From Actinomycetes bacterium (GTDB lineage: Bacteria > Actinomycetota > Acidimicrobiia > Spongiisociales > ZC4RG35): DNA of 64,000 nt. Made by a program: the position numbers and the translations under genes. The stretch lies in assembly GCA_003242515.2 (NCBI GenBank), contig QGUS02000003.1, forward strand, positions 12,647-76,646, written 5' to 3'. Within the stretch, counting starts at the first letter, position 1, and every line of letters starts with the position of its first letter. This document shows, piece by piece, positions 2,997-22,384 of the stretch. The notes beneath the pieces were generated by a model, which saw only the letters and a program-made list of their open reading frames with translations, was not told the origin of the DNA and did no database searches.

Positions 2997-3881
2997 ATGC
3001 GGATACTCCCCCGGCCGTTCGGGCTGATCGTCGCCGACGCCATGGCCGTCCTCGGCCGCACCTGGAAGACCCTCGTCCCGGTCTCCATCGCCGTGTTCGT
3101 GCCAGCGGCGCTGGCGTCCTGGGCGGCCTACTCCATCCCGGGGGCACTCGAGTTCGTGGAGGCCATCCTCCTCGAGCCGGAGACCCTGGCCGGTCTCCCC
3201 GCCGCGGAGTTCTGGGAGCGGGCCCGGCCGTTCGTCACCGCCGCGGTGGTCACGATGGTCGTGCAGCTCCTCGCGTCCGTCCTCGTGTTCCTCTTCTGCC
3301 ACCGCGTCGTGATCGCGTCGGTCCGGGAACAGCCCACCGGCCGGGCCTCCCTGCAGAGGGTGCTCCGCCGCTACCCCGTCGCCGCCGCGGCCACCGTCCT
3401 GTCCGCGGCCGCCGCGTTCGGTCTCTTCCTGATCGGGTACACGGTGTGGAGCATCCCGGCGACCATCGTCGCCTTCCCCAACCCCACCGCAGAGTTCGCC
3501 GGCACCGTCCTCCTCTTCGCCTTCACCGGCCCGGGGATCTGGCTGGCCGTGTCCATGTCGATGGTGACCCCGGTCGCCTCCGTGGAGGAGAAGGGGGTCT
3601 TCGCCTCGATCCGACGCAGCGCCGCCCTGGTCAGGGGCCGTTGGTGGGCCACCCTGGGGTTCCTGCTGGTGGTGGCGATGCTCGGGATCATCGCCGTGAA
3701 CCTGATCCAGCTGGTGGCCATCCCCGTCACCGCGGCCGGTGGCGGCGGCGCCACCCCGATCGCCTCGCTGCTCGGCGTCCTGGCCCAGGGACCGATCGTG
3801 GCGGCGATGGGCGTGATGTTCACCAGCTGGTACCTGGACCTGCGGGCCCGCAAGGAAGTGCTGCTGGTCGCTCAGCTCTGA
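2997..3881 (+). CDS. Polytopic membrane protein of unknown function
   Basis: ATG at 2997 lies in frame within ORF 2625..3881. There are several hydrophobic helices (LVPVSIAVFVPAALASWAAY, LGFLLVVAMLGIIAVNLIQLVAI). The upstream part of the ORF is antisense shadow of mutM. Confidence 0.6.
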   Translation: MRILPRPFGLIVADAMAVLGRTWKTLVPVSIAVFVPAALASWAAYSIPGALEFVEAILLEPETLAGLPAAEFWERARPFVTAAVVTMVVQLLASVLVFLFCHRVVIASVREQPTGRASLQRVLRRYPVAAAATVLSAAAAFGLFLIGYTVWSIPATIVAFPNPTAEFAGTVLLFAFTGPGIWLAVSMSMVTPVASVEEKGVFASIRRSAALVRGRWWATLGFLLVVAMLGIIAVNLIQLVAIPVTAAGGGGATPIASLLGVLAQGPIVAAMGVMFTSWYLDLRARKEVLLVAQL

Positions 3882-7861: not shown

Positions 7862-10020
7862 GACACGAACAGCCACTCGACGCGGTCGCCCAGGACCGCC
7901 CTGATCTCCTCGACGAGTGCGGGCTGGGTGACCAGGTCGGGGTCGGAGGCGACCAGCCCGAAGGCGTCCCGCCGCGCCGCGATCAGCATCTCGAAGTCCT
8001 CCAGCAGGTCGGCGACCCGCAGGTCGCCCATGCCCGACTGCCGCGCCCCGAACACCGTGCCCTGGCCGCGGATGGCGAGGTCGACGTTGGCCAGCTCGAA
8101 CCCGTCGGTGGTGGAGACGAAGGCGGAGAGACGCATCTCGGCCTCCTCGCCCGGCGGGTCGGAGATGACCACGCAGTGGCCCCGGTGGGAGCCGCGACCG
8201 ACGCGGCCGCGCAGCTGGTGGAGCTGGCTCAGGCCGAACCGGTCGGCGTCCTCGATGACCATCACGGTGGCGTTGGGCACGTCAATGCCCACCTCGATGA
8301 CGGTGGTCGACACCAGCACGTCGATGTCCCCGGCCCGGAACGCGGCCATCACCTGCTCCTTGTCGGCGGGGCGCATCTGGCCGTGGATCAGGCCCACCCT
8401 GAGGTCGGAGAAGATGGCGCTGAGGCGGGCGTGCTCCGCCGTGGCGGACGCCGCCTCCACCTTGTCGCTGTCCTCGACCAGGGGGCACACCACGAAGGCC
8501 TGGCGGCCCTTCGCCACCTCCTGCCGGACCAGGTCCCAGGCGAGCCCCTCCTGAGCCTTGTGGACGTGGCGGGTGATCACCGGCGCCCGTCCCGGCGGCA
8601 TCTCGTCGATCACGGAGACGTCCAGGTCGCCGTACAGGGTCATGGAGAGGGTCCGGGGGATCGGCGTGGCGGTCATGATCAGAAGGTCGGGGTCGATCCC
8701 GGCCGCCTTCTCCTTCAGCTTGATCCGCTGATGGACGCCGAAGCGGTGCTGCTCGTCGACGATGGCAACGCCGAGGCGGGCGAACTCCACCCCCTCCTGG
8801 ATGAGGGCGTGGGTGCCCACGAGCATGTCGACCCTCCCCGCGGCGACGTCTTCCAGGAGCGTGGCCCTGGTGATCTCCGGGTCGTAGTTGGAGGCGGCGG
8901 TGTTGCCGGTGAGCAGGCCGACGCGTACCGCCGGCTCGTCGGTCTCGAAGAGGCTGGCCATCCCGAGCCGGGCGCCCTGCCCGAACGGCTCCGGGGACAT
9001 GCCCGCCTCGGCGAGGAGGTGGGTGACGCCCAGATAGTGTTGCTCGGCGAGGACCTCGGTGGGCGCCATGATCGCTCCCTGCCATCCGCCCTCCACCCCG
9101 GCGAGCAGCGCCATCACCGCGACGACGGTCTTGCCGGAGCCGACCTCGCCCTGGAGGAGCCGGTGCATCGGGTAGGGGCCGCGGAGGTCGGCGGTGATCT
9201 CGTCGATCACCCTCCGCTGGGCTCCGGTCAGCCGGTAGGGGAGGCCGGAGAGGAACCGTTCCGTCAGCTCACCCGTCGGCTCGTGGGCGACGCCCCGGGA
9301 CTCCTCGAGGCGGCGCCGCTTCTGCAACGCCAGGGCCAGCTCGAGACGGAAGAACTCGTCGTAGACGAGCCGCCGTCGGGCATGGCCGACCTGGTCCATC
9401 GACTGCGGGAAGTGGATGTTCTGGAAGGCGTCGTCCCTGGTCACGAGGCCATGGGTGGCGAGGAACTCCACCGGCACCGGGTCGGCGACCGGCCGCGACC
9501 GCTTCAGGGCCTGCCGGATCAGCTGGGCCACCTTCCACGGCTTGAGCTGGCCGACCTGGGAGTGGACCGGGGTGATCTCGGTGTCACGGAGCAGGTGCTC
9601 CCCCTCCGCCAGCCGGCGGGCGAGACGGACCCGGATCTGCTTCTTCCCGGCGAAGGTGTCGACCACTCCGGTGACCGCCCACCACGACCCCGGCTGCAAT
9701 TGGGCGGCCATGTGGCGCTGGTTGAACCAGACCGCGGTGATCGTGCCGGTCTCGTCGGCCAGCACGGCCTCGATGATCAGCAGGTTGCGCCGCGGCCGGC
9801 GGTCCCGGACGGTCCGGACCTGGCCCTGGATGGTCACTTCGGCGCCCTTCGAGGCGGTGGCGATCGTCGTGCCCTCCGCCTCCATGTAGCGGTGTGGGAT
9901 GAAGTGGAGGAGGTCGGCCACGGTCTGGATGCCCGCGTTGGCCAGGGCCCGGGCACTCGCCGGGCCCACTCCGGAAAGCTCGGTCACGGGGATCTGGCTC
10001 AGCCGGGCGAGGGTGGCCAT
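7858..10020 (-). CDS. recG: ATP-dependent DNA helicase RecG
   Basis: 720 aa. Wedge domain followed by a helicase core: GEVGSGKTVVA (Walker A), IVDEQHRFG (motif II), GQMRPADKE. Confidence 0.93.
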   Translation of the reverse strand: MATLARLSQIPVTELSGVGPASARALANAGIQTVADLLHFIPHRYMEAEGTTIATASKGAEVTIQGQVRTVRDRRPRRNLLIIEAVLADETGTITAVWFNQRHMAAQLQPGSWWAVTGVVDTFAGKKQIRVRLARRLAEGEHLLRDTEITPVHSQVGQLKPWKVAQLIRQALKRSRPVADPVPVEFLATHGLVTRDDAFQNIHFPQSMDQVGHARRRLVYDEFFRLELALALQKRRRLEESRGVAHEPTGELTERFLSGLPYRLTGAQRRVIDEITADLRGPYPMHRLLQGEVGSGKTVVAVMALLAGVEGGWQGAIMAPTEVLAEQHYLGVTHLLAEAGMSPEPFGQGARLGMASLFETDEPAVRVGLLTGNTAASNYDPEITRATLLEDVAAGRVDMLVGTHALIQEGVEFARLGVAIVDEQHRFGVHQRIKLKEKAAGIDPDLLIMTATPIPRTLSMTLYGDLDVSVIDEMPPGRAPVITRHVHKAQEGLAWDLVRQEVAKGRQAFVVCPLVEDSDKVEAASATAEHARLSAIFSDLRVGLIHGQMRPADKEQVMAAFRAGDIDVLVSTTVIEVGIDVPNATVMVIEDADRFGLSQLHQLRGRVGRGSHRGHCVVISDPPGEEAEMRLSAFVSTTDGFELANVDLAIRGQGTVFGARQSGMGDLRVADLLEDFEMLIAARRDAFGLVASDPDLVTQPALVEEIRAVLGDRVEWLFVS

Positions 10021-18831: not shown

Positions 18832-20439
18832 TCAGGCCTGGTCGAGGAGGAGGTCGGCGTACTGGTCGCGCACGACCTTCTTGTCGAACTTCCCGGTGCC
18901 GGTCTTCGGAATGGCCTCGATGAAGACGATCCTGTCCGGGAGCCACCAGGAGGCGACCCGACCTTCGAGGTGCTTGCGGAGCTCCTCCTCGGTGACCTCG
19001 CCCTTCCTGACCACGAAGGCCACCGGGCGCTCCTGCCACTTCGGGTGCTTGAGGCCGACCACCGTGGCCTCGGCCACGGCCGGATGGGCCATCAGCTCGT
19101 TCTCCAGGTCCAGCGAGGAGATCCACTCGCCACCGGACTTGATCACGTCCTTGGCCCGGTCGGTGATCCGGATGTAGCCCTCCGGGGTGATCTTGCAGAC
19201 GTCACCCGTGCGCATCCAACCGTCGACGAACGACTGGGCGGAGCGGTCGTCCTTGTAGTACTCACCGGCGATCCACGGGCCGCGGATCAGCAGCTCGCCG
19301 AACGCCTCGCCGTCGTGCGGGAGCTCCTCTCCCACCTCGTCGACGATCTTCACCTGCAGGCCGAAGACCGGGATGCCGGCCGTCTCGAGACGATCGAGCT
19401 GGTCCTCCAGCGGCCAGTCCTCCATGTGCGGCTTGAGCACGGCGACCGACGCGACCGGATTGGTCTCGGTCATGCCCCATCCCTGGATGATCCGGATCCC
19501 CTGAGCCTTCCAGAACCACTCGATCAGGGCCCGGGGGACGGCGGAGCCGCCGCACAGGAAGGCCCGGATCGACGACAGCCTGACATCGGGGTTCGCCTCC
19601 AGGTACTGCTTGATCCCCAGCCAGACCGTGGGGACACCGGCGCTGAAGGTCACGTTCTCCTCGGTGAACAGCTTCACCAGCCCCTGCGGCGAGAGGTCCG
19701 GTCCCGGGTAGGTGAGCTTGACGCCCCGGGTCACCGCCATGAACGGGTAGCCCCAGGCGGCGGCGTGGAACATCGGGACGACGGGCAGGACGTTGTCCGT
19801 CGGCTCGATGGGGAAGTTCGCCATGTTGTGGACGGTGTGGAGGTAGGTCGACCGCTGGGTGTATGCGACGCCCTTGGGGTTCCCCGTGGTGCCCGACGAG
19901 TAGCAGAGCATCATCGGCGACCGCTCGTCGAGCATCGGCCACTGCCCGTGCTCGGGCTGGTCGGCGATCAGGTCCTCGTAGGCGATGGAGCCGGGCAGGT
20001 CGTCGGATGCCTCCGGGCCCATGACCACCCAGTGCTTCACCGTCTCCATCTTCGAGGCGATCGGGGCGAGCAGCGGGACCAGGTCGGGGTCGACGAACAT
20101 CGCCTCGTCACCGGCGTGGTTGGCGACGTAGACGATCTGGTCGGCGAAGAGGCGGATGTTGATGGTGTGGCAGATCCGTCCGGTGTTGGCCGTCGCCCAG
20201 TAGAGCTCGTGGTGGCGGATGTTGTTCCAGGCGAAGGTACCCACTGCGGCGCCGCGCTCCAGGCCGAGGGCGTCGAACGCCGACGCGAGCCTGCGGACGC
20301 GATGGTCCGTCTCGGCGTAGGTGGTGCGGGTGATGGAGCGGTCGGCCTCGACCGACACGATCTCGGCGTCGGGGTGGATCCACACCGCGTGGTCGTAGAG
20401 CGTGGAGAGCAGGAGCGGGAAATCCATCATGTGGGGCAT
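18832..20439 (-). CDS. Long/medium-chain fatty-acid--CoA ligase (AMP-dependent synthetase)
   Basis: YSSGTTGNPKGV AMP-binding motif. 535 aa. GGGAGGA lies 5 nt upstream of the ATG. Confidence 0.85.
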   Translation of the reverse strand: MPHMMDFPLLLSTLYDHAVWIHPDAEIVSVEADRSITRTTYAETDHRVRRLASAFDALGLERGAAVGTFAWNNIRHHELYWATANTGRICHTINIRLFADQIVYVANHAGDEAMFVDPDLVPLLAPIASKMETVKHWVVMGPEASDDLPGSIAYEDLIADQPEHGQWPMLDERSPMMLCYSSGTTGNPKGVAYTQRSTYLHTVHNMANFPIEPTDNVLPVVPMFHAAAWGYPFMAVTRGVKLTYPGPDLSPQGLVKLFTEENVTFSAGVPTVWLGIKQYLEANPDVRLSSIRAFLCGGSAVPRALIEWFWKAQGIRIIQGWGMTETNPVASVAVLKPHMEDWPLEDQLDRLETAGIPVFGLQVKIVDEVGEELPHDGEAFGELLIRGPWIAGEYYKDDRSAQSFVDGWMRTGDVCKITPEGYIRITDRAKDVIKSGGEWISSLDLENELMAHPAVAEATVVGLKHPKWQERPVAFVVRKGEVTEEELRKHLEGRVASWWLPDRIVFIEAIPKTGTGKFDKKVVRDQYADLLLDQA

Positions 20440-20789: not shown

Positions 20790-21128
20790 AGGGAGAAAAG
20801 AGAAACCCCGAGGGAGCCTCGGCCGAAGCCTCAACCCTCTCGGGGCTCTCTTGCCGCGCTTCGTCGGGCCGGGGACCCGAATCCGAGCGGACTCTCTTGC
20901 CACCGGCCGAAGCCGACGGCGGGTGCGGCCCGAGGGCCGCCGTTCCCGTTGCCGGGAACTGGTACAGGCCCGAAGGCCTGTTGCCGTTCGTCGGTGACGA
21001 TCCCGAAGGATCCCCGCCGAGCGATCGGCCATCCGAACGCTGCGGGCCGAAGCCCGGCTGCGATTCGGGAAACCTTCACGGACGGTCTCCCGCCCGATCC
21101 GGTGTCTCCGGGTTTCCCCTTCGACGTG
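20790..21128 (-). ncRNA. Candidate structured RNA, unit 2 (about 340 nt), minus strand
   Basis: Bounded by the promoter-like hexamers at 21163-21135 and the terminator-like repeat at 20850-20795. It contains hairpins with UUCG (5 copies including the repeat) and GCAA loops when read on the minus strand. Ends and strand are inferred, not measured. Confidence 0.3.
20795..20850 (-). repeat. 56-nt repeat copy A, terminator-like on the minus strand
   Basis: 54 of 56 nt identical to 21305-21360. Minus strand reads CCCCGAGAGGG..GGCUUCGGCC..CCCUCGGGG followed by UUUCUCUUUUCUCCC. Confidence 0.6.
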
Positions 21129-21134
21129 ACCGGA

Positions 21135-21163
21135 AAGTTACGCCACCAGGTGGGGTGGCACAA
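21135..21163 (-). promoter_or_regulatory. Sigma70-like promoter candidate for unit 2 (TTGTGC-17 nt-TAACTT on the minus strand)
   Basis: The hexamers sit at exactly the same offsets (331 bp shift) as the stronger promoter candidate of unit 1. Confidence 0.3.
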
Positions 21164-21180
21164 GCGGATTCGGCACTTGT

Positions 21181-21208
21181 TTTTCGCGAGCTGCGAGGAG
21201 TTTTCGCG
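21181..21208. promoter_or_regulatory. Pair of TTTTCGCG boxes, 20-bp centre spacing (module 2)
   Basis: TTTTCGCG at 21181-21188 and 21201-21208. The pair ends 17 nt upstream (minus-strand sense) of the -35 candidate. Confidence 0.35.
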
Positions 21209-21302
21209 CTCTGTGTACTCGAAGAACAGCACGAGACCTCTCGCGGCCCGGCGGGAGCCACCCCCACATCTCCACACGCTTCGCTTGGGGAAGGGCAGGG
21301 TG

Positions 21303-21459
21303 CGGAAATGAGAAACCCCGAGGGAGCCTCGGCCGAAGCCTCAGCCCTCTCGGGGCTCTCGGTGTCGTCTCTCCCGGGGAAAGCGGGCCCCCCGTTCGAG
21401 GCGACTGGTCTCCGGGGCCGAAGCCCCTTCGACGGTGACCGGGGCGAACCCCGTTCACG
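21303..21459 (-). ncRNA. Candidate structured small RNA, unit 1 (about 155 nt), minus strand
   Basis: Runs from just downstream of the TATGTT -10 (21471-21466) to the U-tract after repeat copy B. It has a 5' hairpin GUGAACGGGG-UUCG-CCCCGGUCAC, a long hairpin capped by GGGGC-UUCG-GCCCC, and a terminator hairpin. Confidence 0.35.
21305..21360 (-). repeat. 56-nt repeat copy B, terminator-like on the minus strand
   Basis: 54 of 56 nt identical to 20795-20850. On the minus strand it is followed by UUUCUCAUUUCC. Confidence 0.6.
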
Positions 21460-21465
21460 GCACGA

Positions 21466-21494
21466 AACATATGGGTCCCCTCCCGAGCCGTCAA
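21466..21494 (-). promoter_or_regulatory. Sigma70-like promoter candidate for unit 1 (TTGACG-17 nt-TATGTT on the minus strand)
   Basis: The reverse complement of 21489-21494 is TTGACG and that of 21466-21471 is TATGTT. The spacer is exactly 17 nt. Confidence 0.4.
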
Positions 21495-21511: not shown

Positions 21512-21539
21512 TTTTCGCGGCTTGTCACGAATTTTCGCG
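21512..21539. promoter_or_regulatory. Pair of TTTTCGCG boxes, 20-bp centre spacing (module 1)
   Basis: TTTTCGCG at 21512-21519 and 21532-21539. Both are exactly 331 bp from the module 2 boxes, and 17 nt from the -35 candidate. Confidence 0.35.
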
Positions 21540-21565
21540 ACCGGTTTCTGTCCCACCCCCTACCT

Positions 21566-22384
21566 ATGATCGCCACCATGACCGCGACCGCGGCACAGGC
21601 CGTCCCGCTGCGACTCGAGAACCTCTCGCCCAGCCGGGCCGGCGACTTCAAGACCTGCCCCCAGCTCTTCAAGTTCCGGGCCATCGATCGCATCCCCGAG
21701 CCCGTGACCATCCATCAGGCGCGGGGCACCACGGCGCACCTTGCGCTGCAGCGTCTCTTCGACCTCCCCCGCACCAACCGCACCCCGGACACCCTGTTCG
21801 ACCTCTTCAGGCAGGCGTGGACCGAGATCCGGGGCGACGAGGAGTTCACCGGGCTCTTCCCGTCGGTCGAGGAGGAGCGCGCCTGGGGGATCGAGTCCCT
21901 CGGCCTCCTCGCCAACTACTTCGCCATCGAGGACCCGGCCACCTTCGAGCCGGTCGCCCGCGAGCTGGACATGACCGAGCAATTGGGCGACATAGTGATC
22001 CGGGGGATCCTCGACCGGATGGACCGCCGGCCCGACGGGGCGCTGGTGATCACCGACTACAAGACCGGCAAGGCGCCACCCGAGTCGTACGCCCTCCCCG
22101 CCTTCTTCGCCCTCAAGATCTACGCCCTGCTCATCCGGAACCGTCTCGGCGAGACCCCGGCGGAGTTGCGGCTCCTCTACCTGAACGGGCCGACCATGTA
22201 CACGCTGCCCGTCGACGACCGGCAGCTCGACGGCATGGAGAGCCAGCTGCGCGCCCTGTGGTCGGCCATCGACCGGGCGCTGGCCTCGGGCAACTTCCCG
22301 CCCCGGCCGGGGACCCTGTGCAACTGGTGCTCCTACCGGGACATGTGCCCGGCCTGGGTCGAGCCCCCGACCGAGTCGGTCTAG
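21566..22384 (+). CDS. PD-(D/E)XK nuclease, RecB-family exonuclease / Cas4-like with Fe-S cysteines
   Basis: ATG at 21566 (MIATMTATAAQ...). FKTCPQLFKF, GILDRMD, VITDYKTGK (D..D/ExK core) and C-terminal CNWCSYRDMCPAW. Codon usage changes sharply to high GC3 at this ATG. Confidence 0.8.
   Translation: MIATMTATAAQAVPLRLENLSPSRAGDFKTCPQLFKFRAIDRIPEPVTIHQARGTTAHLALQRLFDLPRTNRTPDTLFDLFRQAWTEIRGDEEFTGLFPSVEEERAWGIESLGLLANYFAIEDPATFEPVARELDMTEQLGDIVIRGILDRMDRRPDGALVITDYKTGKAPPESYALPAFFALKIYALLIRNRLGETPAELRLLYLNGPTMYTLPVDDRQLDGMESQLRALWSAIDRALASGNFPPRPGTLCNWCSYRDMCPAWVEPPTESV

Follow-up and report, generated by a model that had tools for sequence, protein, structure and literature searches.

A repeated 56-nt hairpin probably ends two adjacent paralogous non-coding RNA genes in Acidimicrobiia

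Ordinary terminators are conserved in shape and not in sequence. Tandem sibling small RNAs are exemplified by OmrA/OmrB in E. coli and PrrF1/PrrF2 in Pseudomonas, and small RNAs of the Csr/Rsm type have a conserved upstream activating sequence. From the Acidimicrobiia, mostly uncultured bacteria that abound in soils, sediments, and waters, we know of almost no described regulatory RNAs; a literature search for their small RNAs returned no paper. We analyzed a 56-nt direct repeat in a 64-kb window (the whole stretch of DNA under analysis) and propose with good confidence that its two copies are the 3′-terminal hairpins of two paralogous non-coding RNA genes, denoted S and L, that lie side by side on the minus strand and whose promoters, starts, and termination are predicted.

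The S/L pair resembles OmrA/OmrB and PrrF1/PrrF2 in being adjacent paralogues of the same orientation with conserved ends and diverged middles, each having its own predicted promoter and the same putative upstream regulatory site, but it shows no sequence or structure relation to these siblings, comes from another phylum, and includes a member (L) more than twice as long as the other. With the Csr/Rsm type it shares a conserved box at a fixed distance from the promoter, a predicted terminator end, and a variable number of similar hairpins, whereas its loops are UUCG and GNRA tetraloops instead of GGA motifs, and its upstream element is a direct repeat of CGCGAAAA instead of a palindrome. 6C and Ms1/6S are likewise structured non-coding actinobacterial RNAs; the hairpins of 6C RNA display C-rich loops, a feature that S and L may share, and Ms1 (~300 nt) is similar to L in length. 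However, 6S and Ms1 form a rod with a central bubble, in contrast to the strings of independent hairpins in S and L (four or more in the consensus), and the neighbors of Ms1 are oxidoreductase and HAD-hydrolase genes (PMC9130861), unlike those of S and L, so that fold and flanking genes both differ from those of the 6S/Ms1 group. The Ms1 paper (PMC9130861) does not cover the S/L locus.

Comparison with databases gave no closer relative. Rfam 15 at the gathering score returned no match in the window or in 20 related loci, and its E-value mode, applied to the region and to related locus L031, returned chance-level matches only (E = 0.84–9.5, e.g., Transposase-2 RNA at E = 0.84). A tRNA/tmRNA scan of the window found none. 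A likeness to the 3′ end of 16S rRNA, 5S rRNA, SRP RNA, and P4 of RNase P was considered and dropped: the stretches in question are stems that covary or short GNRA hairpins, and the Rfam models of these RNAs gave no match. S and L are, by all computed comparisons, members of a structured RNA family that is conserved across Acidimicrobiia and absent from Rfam. The octamer CGCGAAAA appeared in the literature only in papers on E2F sites and primers.

The two repeat copies (copy 1, 20795–20850; copy 2, 21305–21360) are spaced 510 nt apart and identical at 54 of 56 bases, and both mismatches (20799 A vs. 21309 T, 20834 A vs. 21344 G) are where the original prediction had put them. A search of the 64-kb window for a 40-nt core, with up to three mismatches allowed, returned the two copies and no others, and 100 shuffles gave no match. 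On the minus strand each copy can form the hairpin CCCCGAG-A-GGGyU..GGC-UUCG-GCC..GGCUC-C-CUCGGGG, with a UUCUC tail that pairs with an upstream GAGAG. Copy 2 (GAGAG-CCCCGAGAGGGCUGAGGCUUCGGCCGAGGCUCCCUCGGGG-UUUCUCAUUUC) is the predicted 3′ terminal stem-loop of S and helix P4 of the consensus structure; copy 1, the corresponding stem-loop of L, has GGGUUG for GGGCUG and the tail UUUCUCUUUUC. The computed folds on the minus strand (−38.9 and −36.6 kcal/mol) were more stable than shuffles (z = −2.5 and −2.8), whereas those on the plus strand were close to shuffles (z = −0.8 and −1.0), and a terminator consensus scan returned terminator-like sites at both copies on the minus strand only. As an observation, the repeat is confirmed.

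The module resembles the intrinsic (Rho-independent) terminators of small RNAs in that a G+C-rich hairpin with a short U-rich tail would end a short promoter-bearing unit, and in that the hairpin would stay as a stable 3′ end of the RNA. It differs from them in a stem core of invariant sequence (63 homologues, see below) and in a short U tract that pairs with GAGAG; moreover, the tail is hardly U-rich in some homologues. The tails after the stem (UUUCUCUUUUC in copy 1, UUUCUCAUUUC in copy 2) have just three consecutive U, and in some L homologues CCUUCUCGUU takes the place of the short tract UUUCUC. With such tails the efficiency of termination is uncertain, and the hairpin may act in RNA processing or stability instead.

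S, L, and both repeat copies sit in a 1.1-kb gap flanked by genes for an AMP-binding enzyme and a PD-(D/E)XK nuclease; in this gap, gene callers placed no gene and a conserved ORF was absent. The predicted S gene (21307–21459, minus strand, ~153 nt, with the 5′ end set from the −10 box) has four stems: P1 and P2 with UUCG loops, P3 with an invariant 10-nt loop, GGCCCGCUUU, and P4, the predicted terminator. The match to the S covariance model (21307–21466) scored 122 bits (E about 1e-25), and the predicted fold reached −87.9 kcal/mol (z = −3.3). The predicted promoter of S (21466–21494, minus strand) consists of −35 TTGACG (21494–21489), a 17-nt spacer, and −10 TATGTT (21471–21466), and it was the sole promoter-like site found between 20300 and 21700 by a consensus scan (0.0 expected). 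Upstream of it lies a double box (21512–21539, minus strand), CGCGAAAA-N12-CGCGAAAA (TTTTCGCG on the plus strand), the proximal box of which ends 17 nt before the −35 element. With up to three mismatches allowed, the double box matched the window twice, both times exactly (0.14 expected). A pseudoknot between the S loop (CUUUCC) and a GGAAGG linker is allowed by the consensus and not by the window's own S, and is not claimed. The complement of the S loop, sought across the window, matched the S gene itself only. The S gene of the window also has an L-like 5′ segment, GGUCAC(C)GUCGAAGGGG..CCCGGAGAC.

The L gene (20797–21128, minus strand, ~330 nt) was predicted from homologues, their alignment, a covariance-model match, and folding. 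Its 5′ block, GGUCACGUCGAAGGGGAAACCCGGAGAC, is followed by a run of cUUCGg and GNRA hairpins that includes the invariant CGGGGAUCCUUCGGGAUCGUC; the body consists of similar hairpins in variable number, differing between species. The last 160 nt (20797–20956) form an S-like four-stem domain that matched the S model over its full length (73 bits). Compensatory changes were found at 24 of 71 pairs in the alignment of L homologues, and the L region folds at −193.9 kcal/mol on the minus strand vs. −171.8 kcal/mol on the plus strand. The predicted L promoter (21135–21163, minus strand) has −35 TTGTGC (21163–21158), a 17-nt spacer, and −10 TAACTT (21140–21135), the L-type consensus in other species being TTGnnn-N17-(GGTC)TACTTT. 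The double box of L (21181–21208, minus strand) is again CGCGAAAA-N12-CGCGAAAA with the proximal box ending 17 nt before the −35 element.

The locus thus presents two homologous non-coding RNA genes, each with its own predicted promoter and terminator, as in sibling small RNAs, and a conserved putative promoter stands 153 nt (S) or ~330 nt (L) upstream of the hairpin, as at the end of a transcription unit. The sequence around the repeats had been described as unrelated, which does not hold: the 160 nt ending at each copy fit one four-stem covariance model (122 and 73 bits), and the promoter layout and upstream double box are also common to both units. Global alignment of S with L by MAFFT failed in the 5′ parts, which the covariance model aligned.

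The S covariance model found 63 homologues. A MAFFT alignment of S showed compensatory changes at 17 of 47 pairs; in the alignment of the 63 homologues, which was fitted to the model, 95.9% of cells were paired vs. 35–59% with the partners slid, 36 of the 47 pairs changed on both sides, and 0 of 500 shuffles reached the observed values. The terminator helix is kept throughout (97.8% of cells paired), and none of the 63 homologues departs from the core sequence of its stem, CCCGAG/CUCGGG, in which one G·U is fixed. The G·U pairs of this helix, invariant or frequent, turn into A·C mismatches if the plus strand is read, and model scores fall from 122 and 73 bits on the minus strand to 25.6 and 23.4 bits on the plus strand. 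The intergenic plus strand has CCGAAG seven times and CTTCGG never, corresponding to seven cUUCGg loops on the minus strand. Because the G·U pairs and cUUCGg loops are strand-specific, we assigned the RNA to the minus strand.

Related loci were gathered through the neighboring nuclease gene, and all counts of loci cover nuclease-linked copies only. The S/L layout recurs beside nuclease orthologues (57–85% protein identity) in dozens of metagenome contigs, and the module was present in ~60 of 80 metagenome loci with nuclease orthologues, mostly in two copies. In 85 distinct box-plus-promoter units, the box spacer is 12–13 nt, the distance from box to −35 is 17 nt (84 of 85), the −35 element is TTGACg, the spacer is mostly 17–18 nt, and the −10 element is TACnTT. 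Sequence similarity between species stops directly after the U-rich tail. Contigs encoding identical flanking proteins all belong to the same strain (gap 99.7–100% identical) and have no comparative power. A scan of 185,579 genomes with a strict exact hairpin pattern, which is narrow and has little bearing on copy number, returned a single match, the orthologous locus of a MAG (nuclease 57% identical) with the same boxes, promoter, UUCG hairpins, and hairpin followed by UUUUGCUUUUG. Short-read assemblies break exactly within the repeat copies, and such breaks are a possible reason why few Acidimicrobiia genomes matched the pattern.

The comparison across species dates the duplication. The difference between GGGCUG (S) and GGGUUG (L) recurs in loci L024, L029, L033, L038, L062, and L065, and the copies are therefore best read as old paralogues held by selection; by this sequence evidence, the duplication that gave rise to S and to the S-like domain at the 3′ end of L is shown to be old. 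The near-identity of the two copies reflects strong sequence-level selection on the module. Since the stem core never varies, not even in a compensatory manner, the hairpin is probably also read by sequence, for instance by a protein that docks on it, with sequence invariance as the basis for this suggestion. It is unusual for a stem to be conserved in sequence beyond its shape when the neighboring protein is just 57–85% identical, and this hints at a specific partner. The earlier proposal of selection on a functional element tied to a specific RNA gene is in line with the predicted promoters, the covariation, the minus-strand G·U pairs, and the synteny.

Near-identity could also arise without selection on the sequence, through a tandem duplication of recent date or gene conversion that still goes on. 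Within the window, and likewise within L024, the two copies agree even at the inner hairpin positions that usually vary (GAGGCUUCGGCCGAGGCU), and the L-like 5′ segment of S hints at some exchange between paralogues in the lineage of the window. However, S and L are distinct genes in many species and have diverged outside the module (73 vs. 122 bits), the C/U difference stays paralogue-specific across species, and conversion within one genome cannot explain a core that is invariant across 63 homologues from different organisms. We regard this origin as unlikely; where the original prediction had named selection or gene conversion, selection is retained, and conversion or recent duplication is unneeded given the invariant core and the paralogue-specific C/U. 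A dispersed palindromic repeat of the REP/MITE kind that landed twice by chance in one intergenic region would share with the copies their palindromic, G+C-rich, extragenic, and repeated nature, and also the breaks of short-read assemblies inside them. It is extremely unlikely, since the window has just two copies in 64 kb, in one gap and one orientation, and in 411 kb of related loci the module stands at a syntenic position ending promoter-bearing units. Two well-assembled contigs (864 kb and 317 kb) have one S/L pair only in the 20 kb around the nuclease gene, between it and the AMP-binding gene; the G·U pairs make the pairing strand-specific; and the exact-pattern scan of genomes matched only the orthologous locus. 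No terminator module was found in viral contigs, in which a search for the double box plus TTG returned two unrelated palindromic TTTCGCGCGAAA sites in one phage type. Each copy is thus, as far as computation shows, a minus-strand terminator-type hairpin of one RNA gene and not a dispersed repeat.

The predicted terminator of L and the AMP-binding gene share a strand, with the terminator 355 nt upstream, and the window sequence contains the alternative local pairing CCGAGG-CUC-CCUCGG that had been pointed out earlier. Both would suit a cis-acting, riboswitch-like leader or attenuator of that gene, with the hairpin as expression platform and the alternative fold as anti-terminator switch. The alternative fold is, however, not conserved among homologues: among 20 homologues, its two central pairs are disrupted in 9 and 11, and an equal result came from 46 of 500 shuffles. 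Moreover, what follows S is another promoter and L and not a gene, the minus-strand gene that comes next after L lies ~125 to ~680 nt away, depending on the locus, that gene is a bPH_2 gene in place of the AMP-binding gene in L105, and some loci have the units inverted onto the nuclease strand. With downstream gene and distance both variable and the competing fold not conserved, attenuation is very unlikely. Also scarcely credible is an element of the plus strand, such as an RNA of that strand or a segment of the nuclease mRNA's 5′ region. The double boxes are on the nuclease side, and the L region folds better than shuffles on the plus strand too (z = −3.1), but there the model scores only ~25 bits (122 and 73 on the minus strand), G·U pairs that are conserved would become A·C mismatches, the loops would be CGAA and not UUCG, and the hairpin has no T-rich tract after it. 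In 67 of 70 loci, with or without an adjacent S, the nuclease gene carries a conserved promoter motif of its own, TGTC-N12-TAnnnT.

Under the preferred reading of two minus-strand RNA genes, RNA polymerase would start at a housekeeping (sigma-70-type) promoter, TTGACG-17-TATGTT for S and TTGTGC-17-TAACTT for L, probably aided by a factor bound to the two CGCGAAAA boxes centered near −57 and −77. A hairpin-rich RNA of ~153 nt (S) or ~330 nt (L) would be made, and transcription would stop at the 56-nt module, a G+C-rich hairpin of ~12 outer pairs with a 3-bp, UUCG-capped tip followed by UUUCUC. The tail would then fold back onto the upstream GAGAG; because the finished RNA would end in a long closed helix, it should resist 3′ exonucleases too. 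S and L most likely act in trans, and the invariant loop GGCCCGCUUU in S and UCCCC in L are candidate contact sites. More speculatively, S and L may be the RNA parts of an undescribed, clade-wide system of Acidimicrobiia in which a factor reading the CGCGAAAA double box switches the genes on, the invariant 3′ hairpin serves a partner protein mainly as a sequence-specific handle, beyond any role as terminator, and L is a modular large structured RNA of 300–450 nt; we offer this as a tentative possibility. On this view L would be composed of many GNRA and UUCG hairpins, gained and lost from species to species, and would be of a kind comparable to the orphan large non-coding RNAs.

The locus adds two well-supported new structured RNA genes, known from sequence, and their rigid promoter signature is a tool for finding further members of the family as well as its binding factor. 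Annotation pipelines would gain from a family model. Gene callers place spurious ORFs over the RNAs: in L105 a 175-aa ORF was called, and a 333-aa ORF in L104 is probably of the same kind.

The 56-nt direct repeat of the original prediction is present in the window (20795-20850 and 21305-21360), with 54 of 56 bases identical and both mismatches at the positions first reported, and its 40-nt core occurs exactly twice in the 64 kb with up to three mismatches tolerated (shuffled sequence: 0 matches). Both copies lie in a 1.1-kb gap between a minus-strand AMP-binding enzyme gene (18832-20439) and a plus-strand PD-(D/E)XK nuclease gene (start at 21566 or 21578), whose named close homologues are from Acidimicrobiia, so that the host is probably an uncultured bacterium of this class; beyond the nuclease gene are a glutamate dehydrogenase gene and then two AdnA/AdnB-type helicase-nuclease genes. 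In a metagenome contig from this strain, gene calling left the gap empty, and searches of the whole window gave no match to Rfam families and no tRNA or tmRNA gene. On the minus strand both copies fold into a long hairpin with a UUCG tetraloop at its tip, followed by UUUCUC (-38.9 and -36.6 kcal/mol; z = -2.5 and -2.8). Folds of the plus strand showed no gain over shuffled sequence, and a consensus scan returned terminator-like sites at both copies on the minus strand alone, which agrees with the earlier claim that the repeat looks like a terminator only on that strand.

The gap consists of two head-to-tail minus-strand units, each running from a double box through a promoter and a hairpin-rich stretch to the 56-nt module, and the two copies are very probably 3′ hairpins, one for each of two paralogous RNA genes on that strand. 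The predicted RNAs are S (~153 nt, ~21459 to 21307), which ends with the copy at 21305-21360, and L (~330 nt, ~21128 to 20797), which ends with the other. CCGAAG occurs seven times and CTTCGG not once in the gap, equivalent to seven minus-strand hairpins with a cUUCGg tetraloop, and the remainder of the window has no such bias (48 vs. 36). The L region folds more stably on the minus strand (-193.9 kcal/mol, z = -4.2) than on the plus strand (-171.8 kcal/mol, z = -3.1), and S folds at -87.9 kcal/mol (z = -3.3). A covariance model of S gave minus-strand matches of 122 and 73 bits in the window, against 25.6 and 23.4 bits on the plus strand. The 73-bit match spans the full model over the last 160 nt of L, so that L is a 5′ extension joined to an S-like four-stem domain, and the flanks of the repeat, previously described as unrelated, are diverged homologues.

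Contigs with identical flanking proteins came from the same strain (99.7-100% identical) and carried no comparative information. Among short-read (Logan) contigs from the strain (L002-L020), many stop exactly within one or other copy (window 21314 and 20829), so assemblers also see the repeat; the near-identical pair breaks assemblies and may explain the rarity of the locus in binned genomes. A strict hairpin pattern run against 185,579 genomes, including many of Acidimicrobiia, gave one match, in an Actinomycetota MAG (L021), and this is the orthologous locus, in front of a nuclease gene with 57% identity to that of the window. It shares the double boxes, the promoter layout and several cUUCGg hairpins, and, on the strand opposite the nuclease, UUUUGCUUUUG comes after its hairpin. 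A protein-guided scan of metagenome contigs added 80 loci whose nuclease orthologues are 66-78% identical, all related loci being collected through the neighboring nuclease gene, and the terminator module, CCCCGAGAGGG..(UUCG hairpin)..CyCUCGGGGUUUCUCGCG, was found in ~60 loci, typically twice per locus. L021 also carries ~11 tandem copies of GGTAGAC directly beside the terminator hairpin (3085-3160), which neither the window nor any other locus inspected contains. Its second promoter-bearing unit contains an internal direct repeat of ~60-70 nt (3470-3625; …ccgccttgcggcg.ttcacgg…cttgcgccggtcacgg…), suggesting that these RNAs lengthen through duplication of hairpin modules within them.

An alignment of 20 S homologues covers ~150 nt and yields a four-stem consensus (P1, P2, P3 and the terminator P4), in which P3 is a covarying stem bearing the invariant 10-nt loop GGCCCGCUUU. 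Compensatory changes were seen in 17 of 47 pairs in the MAFFT alignment of these 20 sequences, and the covariance model built from them found 63 matches (E below 1e-8). In the 63 model-aligned matches, 95.9% of cells were paired, against 35-59% with partners slid by 1-3 columns, and 36 of 47 pairs had changed on both sides, figures that are flattered because this alignment is fitted to the model, with the independent MAFFT alignment agreeing in direction; none of 500 shuffles attained the observed values. The P1 tetraloop alternates between UUCG and GNRA, as RNA would, and G·U pairs are fixed or frequent in the terminator helix (one is G·U in 63/63), which would become A·C mismatches if read on the plus strand. 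The 17 L homologues (296-454 nt) have in common a 5′ block CACGUCGAAGGGGAAACCCGGAGAC, the invariant CGGGGAUCCUUCGGGAUCGUCG and GGUCCCCGGCC, and the terminator; compensatory changes occur in 24 of 71 predicted pairs, and entire hairpins are gained or lost between species. On this comparative evidence, S and L are structured RNAs of the minus strand. The alternative local fold proposed earlier (CCGAGG-CUC-CCUCGG) does exist in the window sequence, but its two central pairs fail to form in 9 and 11 of the 20 homologues; its pairing there is 82%, equaled by 46 of 500 shuffles, and it looks fortuitous. In the related contig L105, a called 175-aa ORF without Pfam match (9132-9659) is probably a spurious protein prediction because it overlies an L match (9281-9438); a 333-aa ORF in L104 (7934-8935), also without Pfam match, likewise spans an L match (8544-8701).

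The near-identity of the copies had been attributed to selection or gene conversion. The terminator stem core (CCCGAG/CUCGGG and neighboring pairs) is invariant in 63/63 homologues from many organisms, with the hairpin tip varying and covarying among them, and the sole in-stem difference between the window copies (C in S, GGGCUG; U in L, GGGUUG) recurs in six related loci (L024, L029, L033, L038, L062 and L065). The copies are therefore old paralogues under purifying selection on the sequence itself, and some exchange between S and L may have occurred in the lineage of the window. S and L of the window, and likewise those of L024, also agree throughout the inner part of the hairpin. Where S of other species reads GUCGGGGAAGGAGAG..CUCUCUGGA, near P2, the S of the window (21420-21450, compared with 21095-21128) has the L-type GGUCAC(C)GUCGAAGGGG-loop-CCC(C)GGAGAC; the model flags mismatches there, and exchange between paralogues in this lineage may be the cause.

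Both genes have a predicted sigma-70-type promoter on the minus strand: TTGACG-17-TATGTT for S (21494-21466), the sole promoter-like site from a scan of the region, and TTGTGC-17-TAACTT for L (21163-21135). Upstream of each is a direct repeat of octamers, CGCGAAAA-N12-CGCGAAAA (minus strand, 21539-21512 for S and 21208-21181 for L), with the proximal octamer ending exactly 17 nt upstream of the -35 element, and no further double box was found in the window with up to three mismatches tolerated. Most of the 80 nuclease-orthologue loci carry the double box, nearly always as TTTTCGCG on the nuclease strand, and 85 of 94 distinct double boxes have a promoter at a fixed distance on the strand opposite TTTTCGCG. 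Among these 85 distinct units, counted over 411 kb of related loci, 62 have a box spacer of 12 nt and 23 one of 13 nt, the distance from box to -35 is 17 nt in 84, and the promoter consensus is TTGACg (-35) and TACnTT (-10) with a spacer of 17 or 18 nt in 84. The double box resembles a site to which a dedicated activator would bind, and a literature search found no published counterpart. In the DNA sampled (the window and L021-L101), it was seen solely in front of structured-RNA genes.

Other readings of the repeat fit the locus poorly. A dispersed repeat is contradicted by the two copies in 64 kb in a single orientation, and two long contigs each have only one S/L pair within 20 kb, between the AMP-binding and nuclease genes; a search of viral contigs for the terminator module found none. 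The copies are not a leader of the downstream gene: behind S comes L, and neither the identity nor the distance of the gene that comes next is constant among loci; the genes intervening between S and the nuclease also differ (MFS transporter, DUF2306 protein). Nor are they part of the nuclease promoter, since that gene has its own TGTC-N12-TAnnnT (67 of 70 orthologous loci vs. 4% of random 140-nt windows). Ms1 or 6S RNA is ruled out by the S/L fold, a string of hairpins, and by the reported flanking genes of Ms1, which differ from the S/L neighborhood (PMC9130861).

For the pair of RNA genes, sequence comparison establishes the sequence, structure and strand of both RNAs, the conserved promoter, boxes and module, and the age of the duplication. 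Transcription would start ~7 nt beyond each -10, aided by a factor on both boxes, centered near -57 and -77, two helical turns apart. The hairpin and UUUCUC would end transcription, a role that is likely for the 3′ hairpins of both S and L. Because GAGAG can pair with the tail, the hairpin would then be retained as a closed helix at the 3′ end of the RNA. The invariant stem might double as a sequence-specific recognition site, its use as a protein handle being a tentative suggestion, and S and L might work in trans via their invariant loops. Small-RNA genes with intrinsic terminators and tandem siblings are a familiar kind; the S/L family is absent from Rfam 15, and a literature search gave no paper describing it.

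Immediately 5′ of the nuclease gene is TGTCCCAC-N8-TATGAT (21549-21570). The nuclease-gene motif resembles the RecA-independent DNA-damage promoter of actinobacteria (PafBC regulon, tTGTCRgtg-N8-TAnnnT). Since the first ATG of the nuclease gene (21566) lies within the -10, translation probably begins at the ATG at 21578 of a leaderless mRNA. A 40-codon ORF was consistently called just 5′ of the AdnA-type helicase-nuclease gene (12190-12312 in contig L001, and the equivalent site in L002-L010), and a 52-codon ORF was called at the equivalent position in L105.
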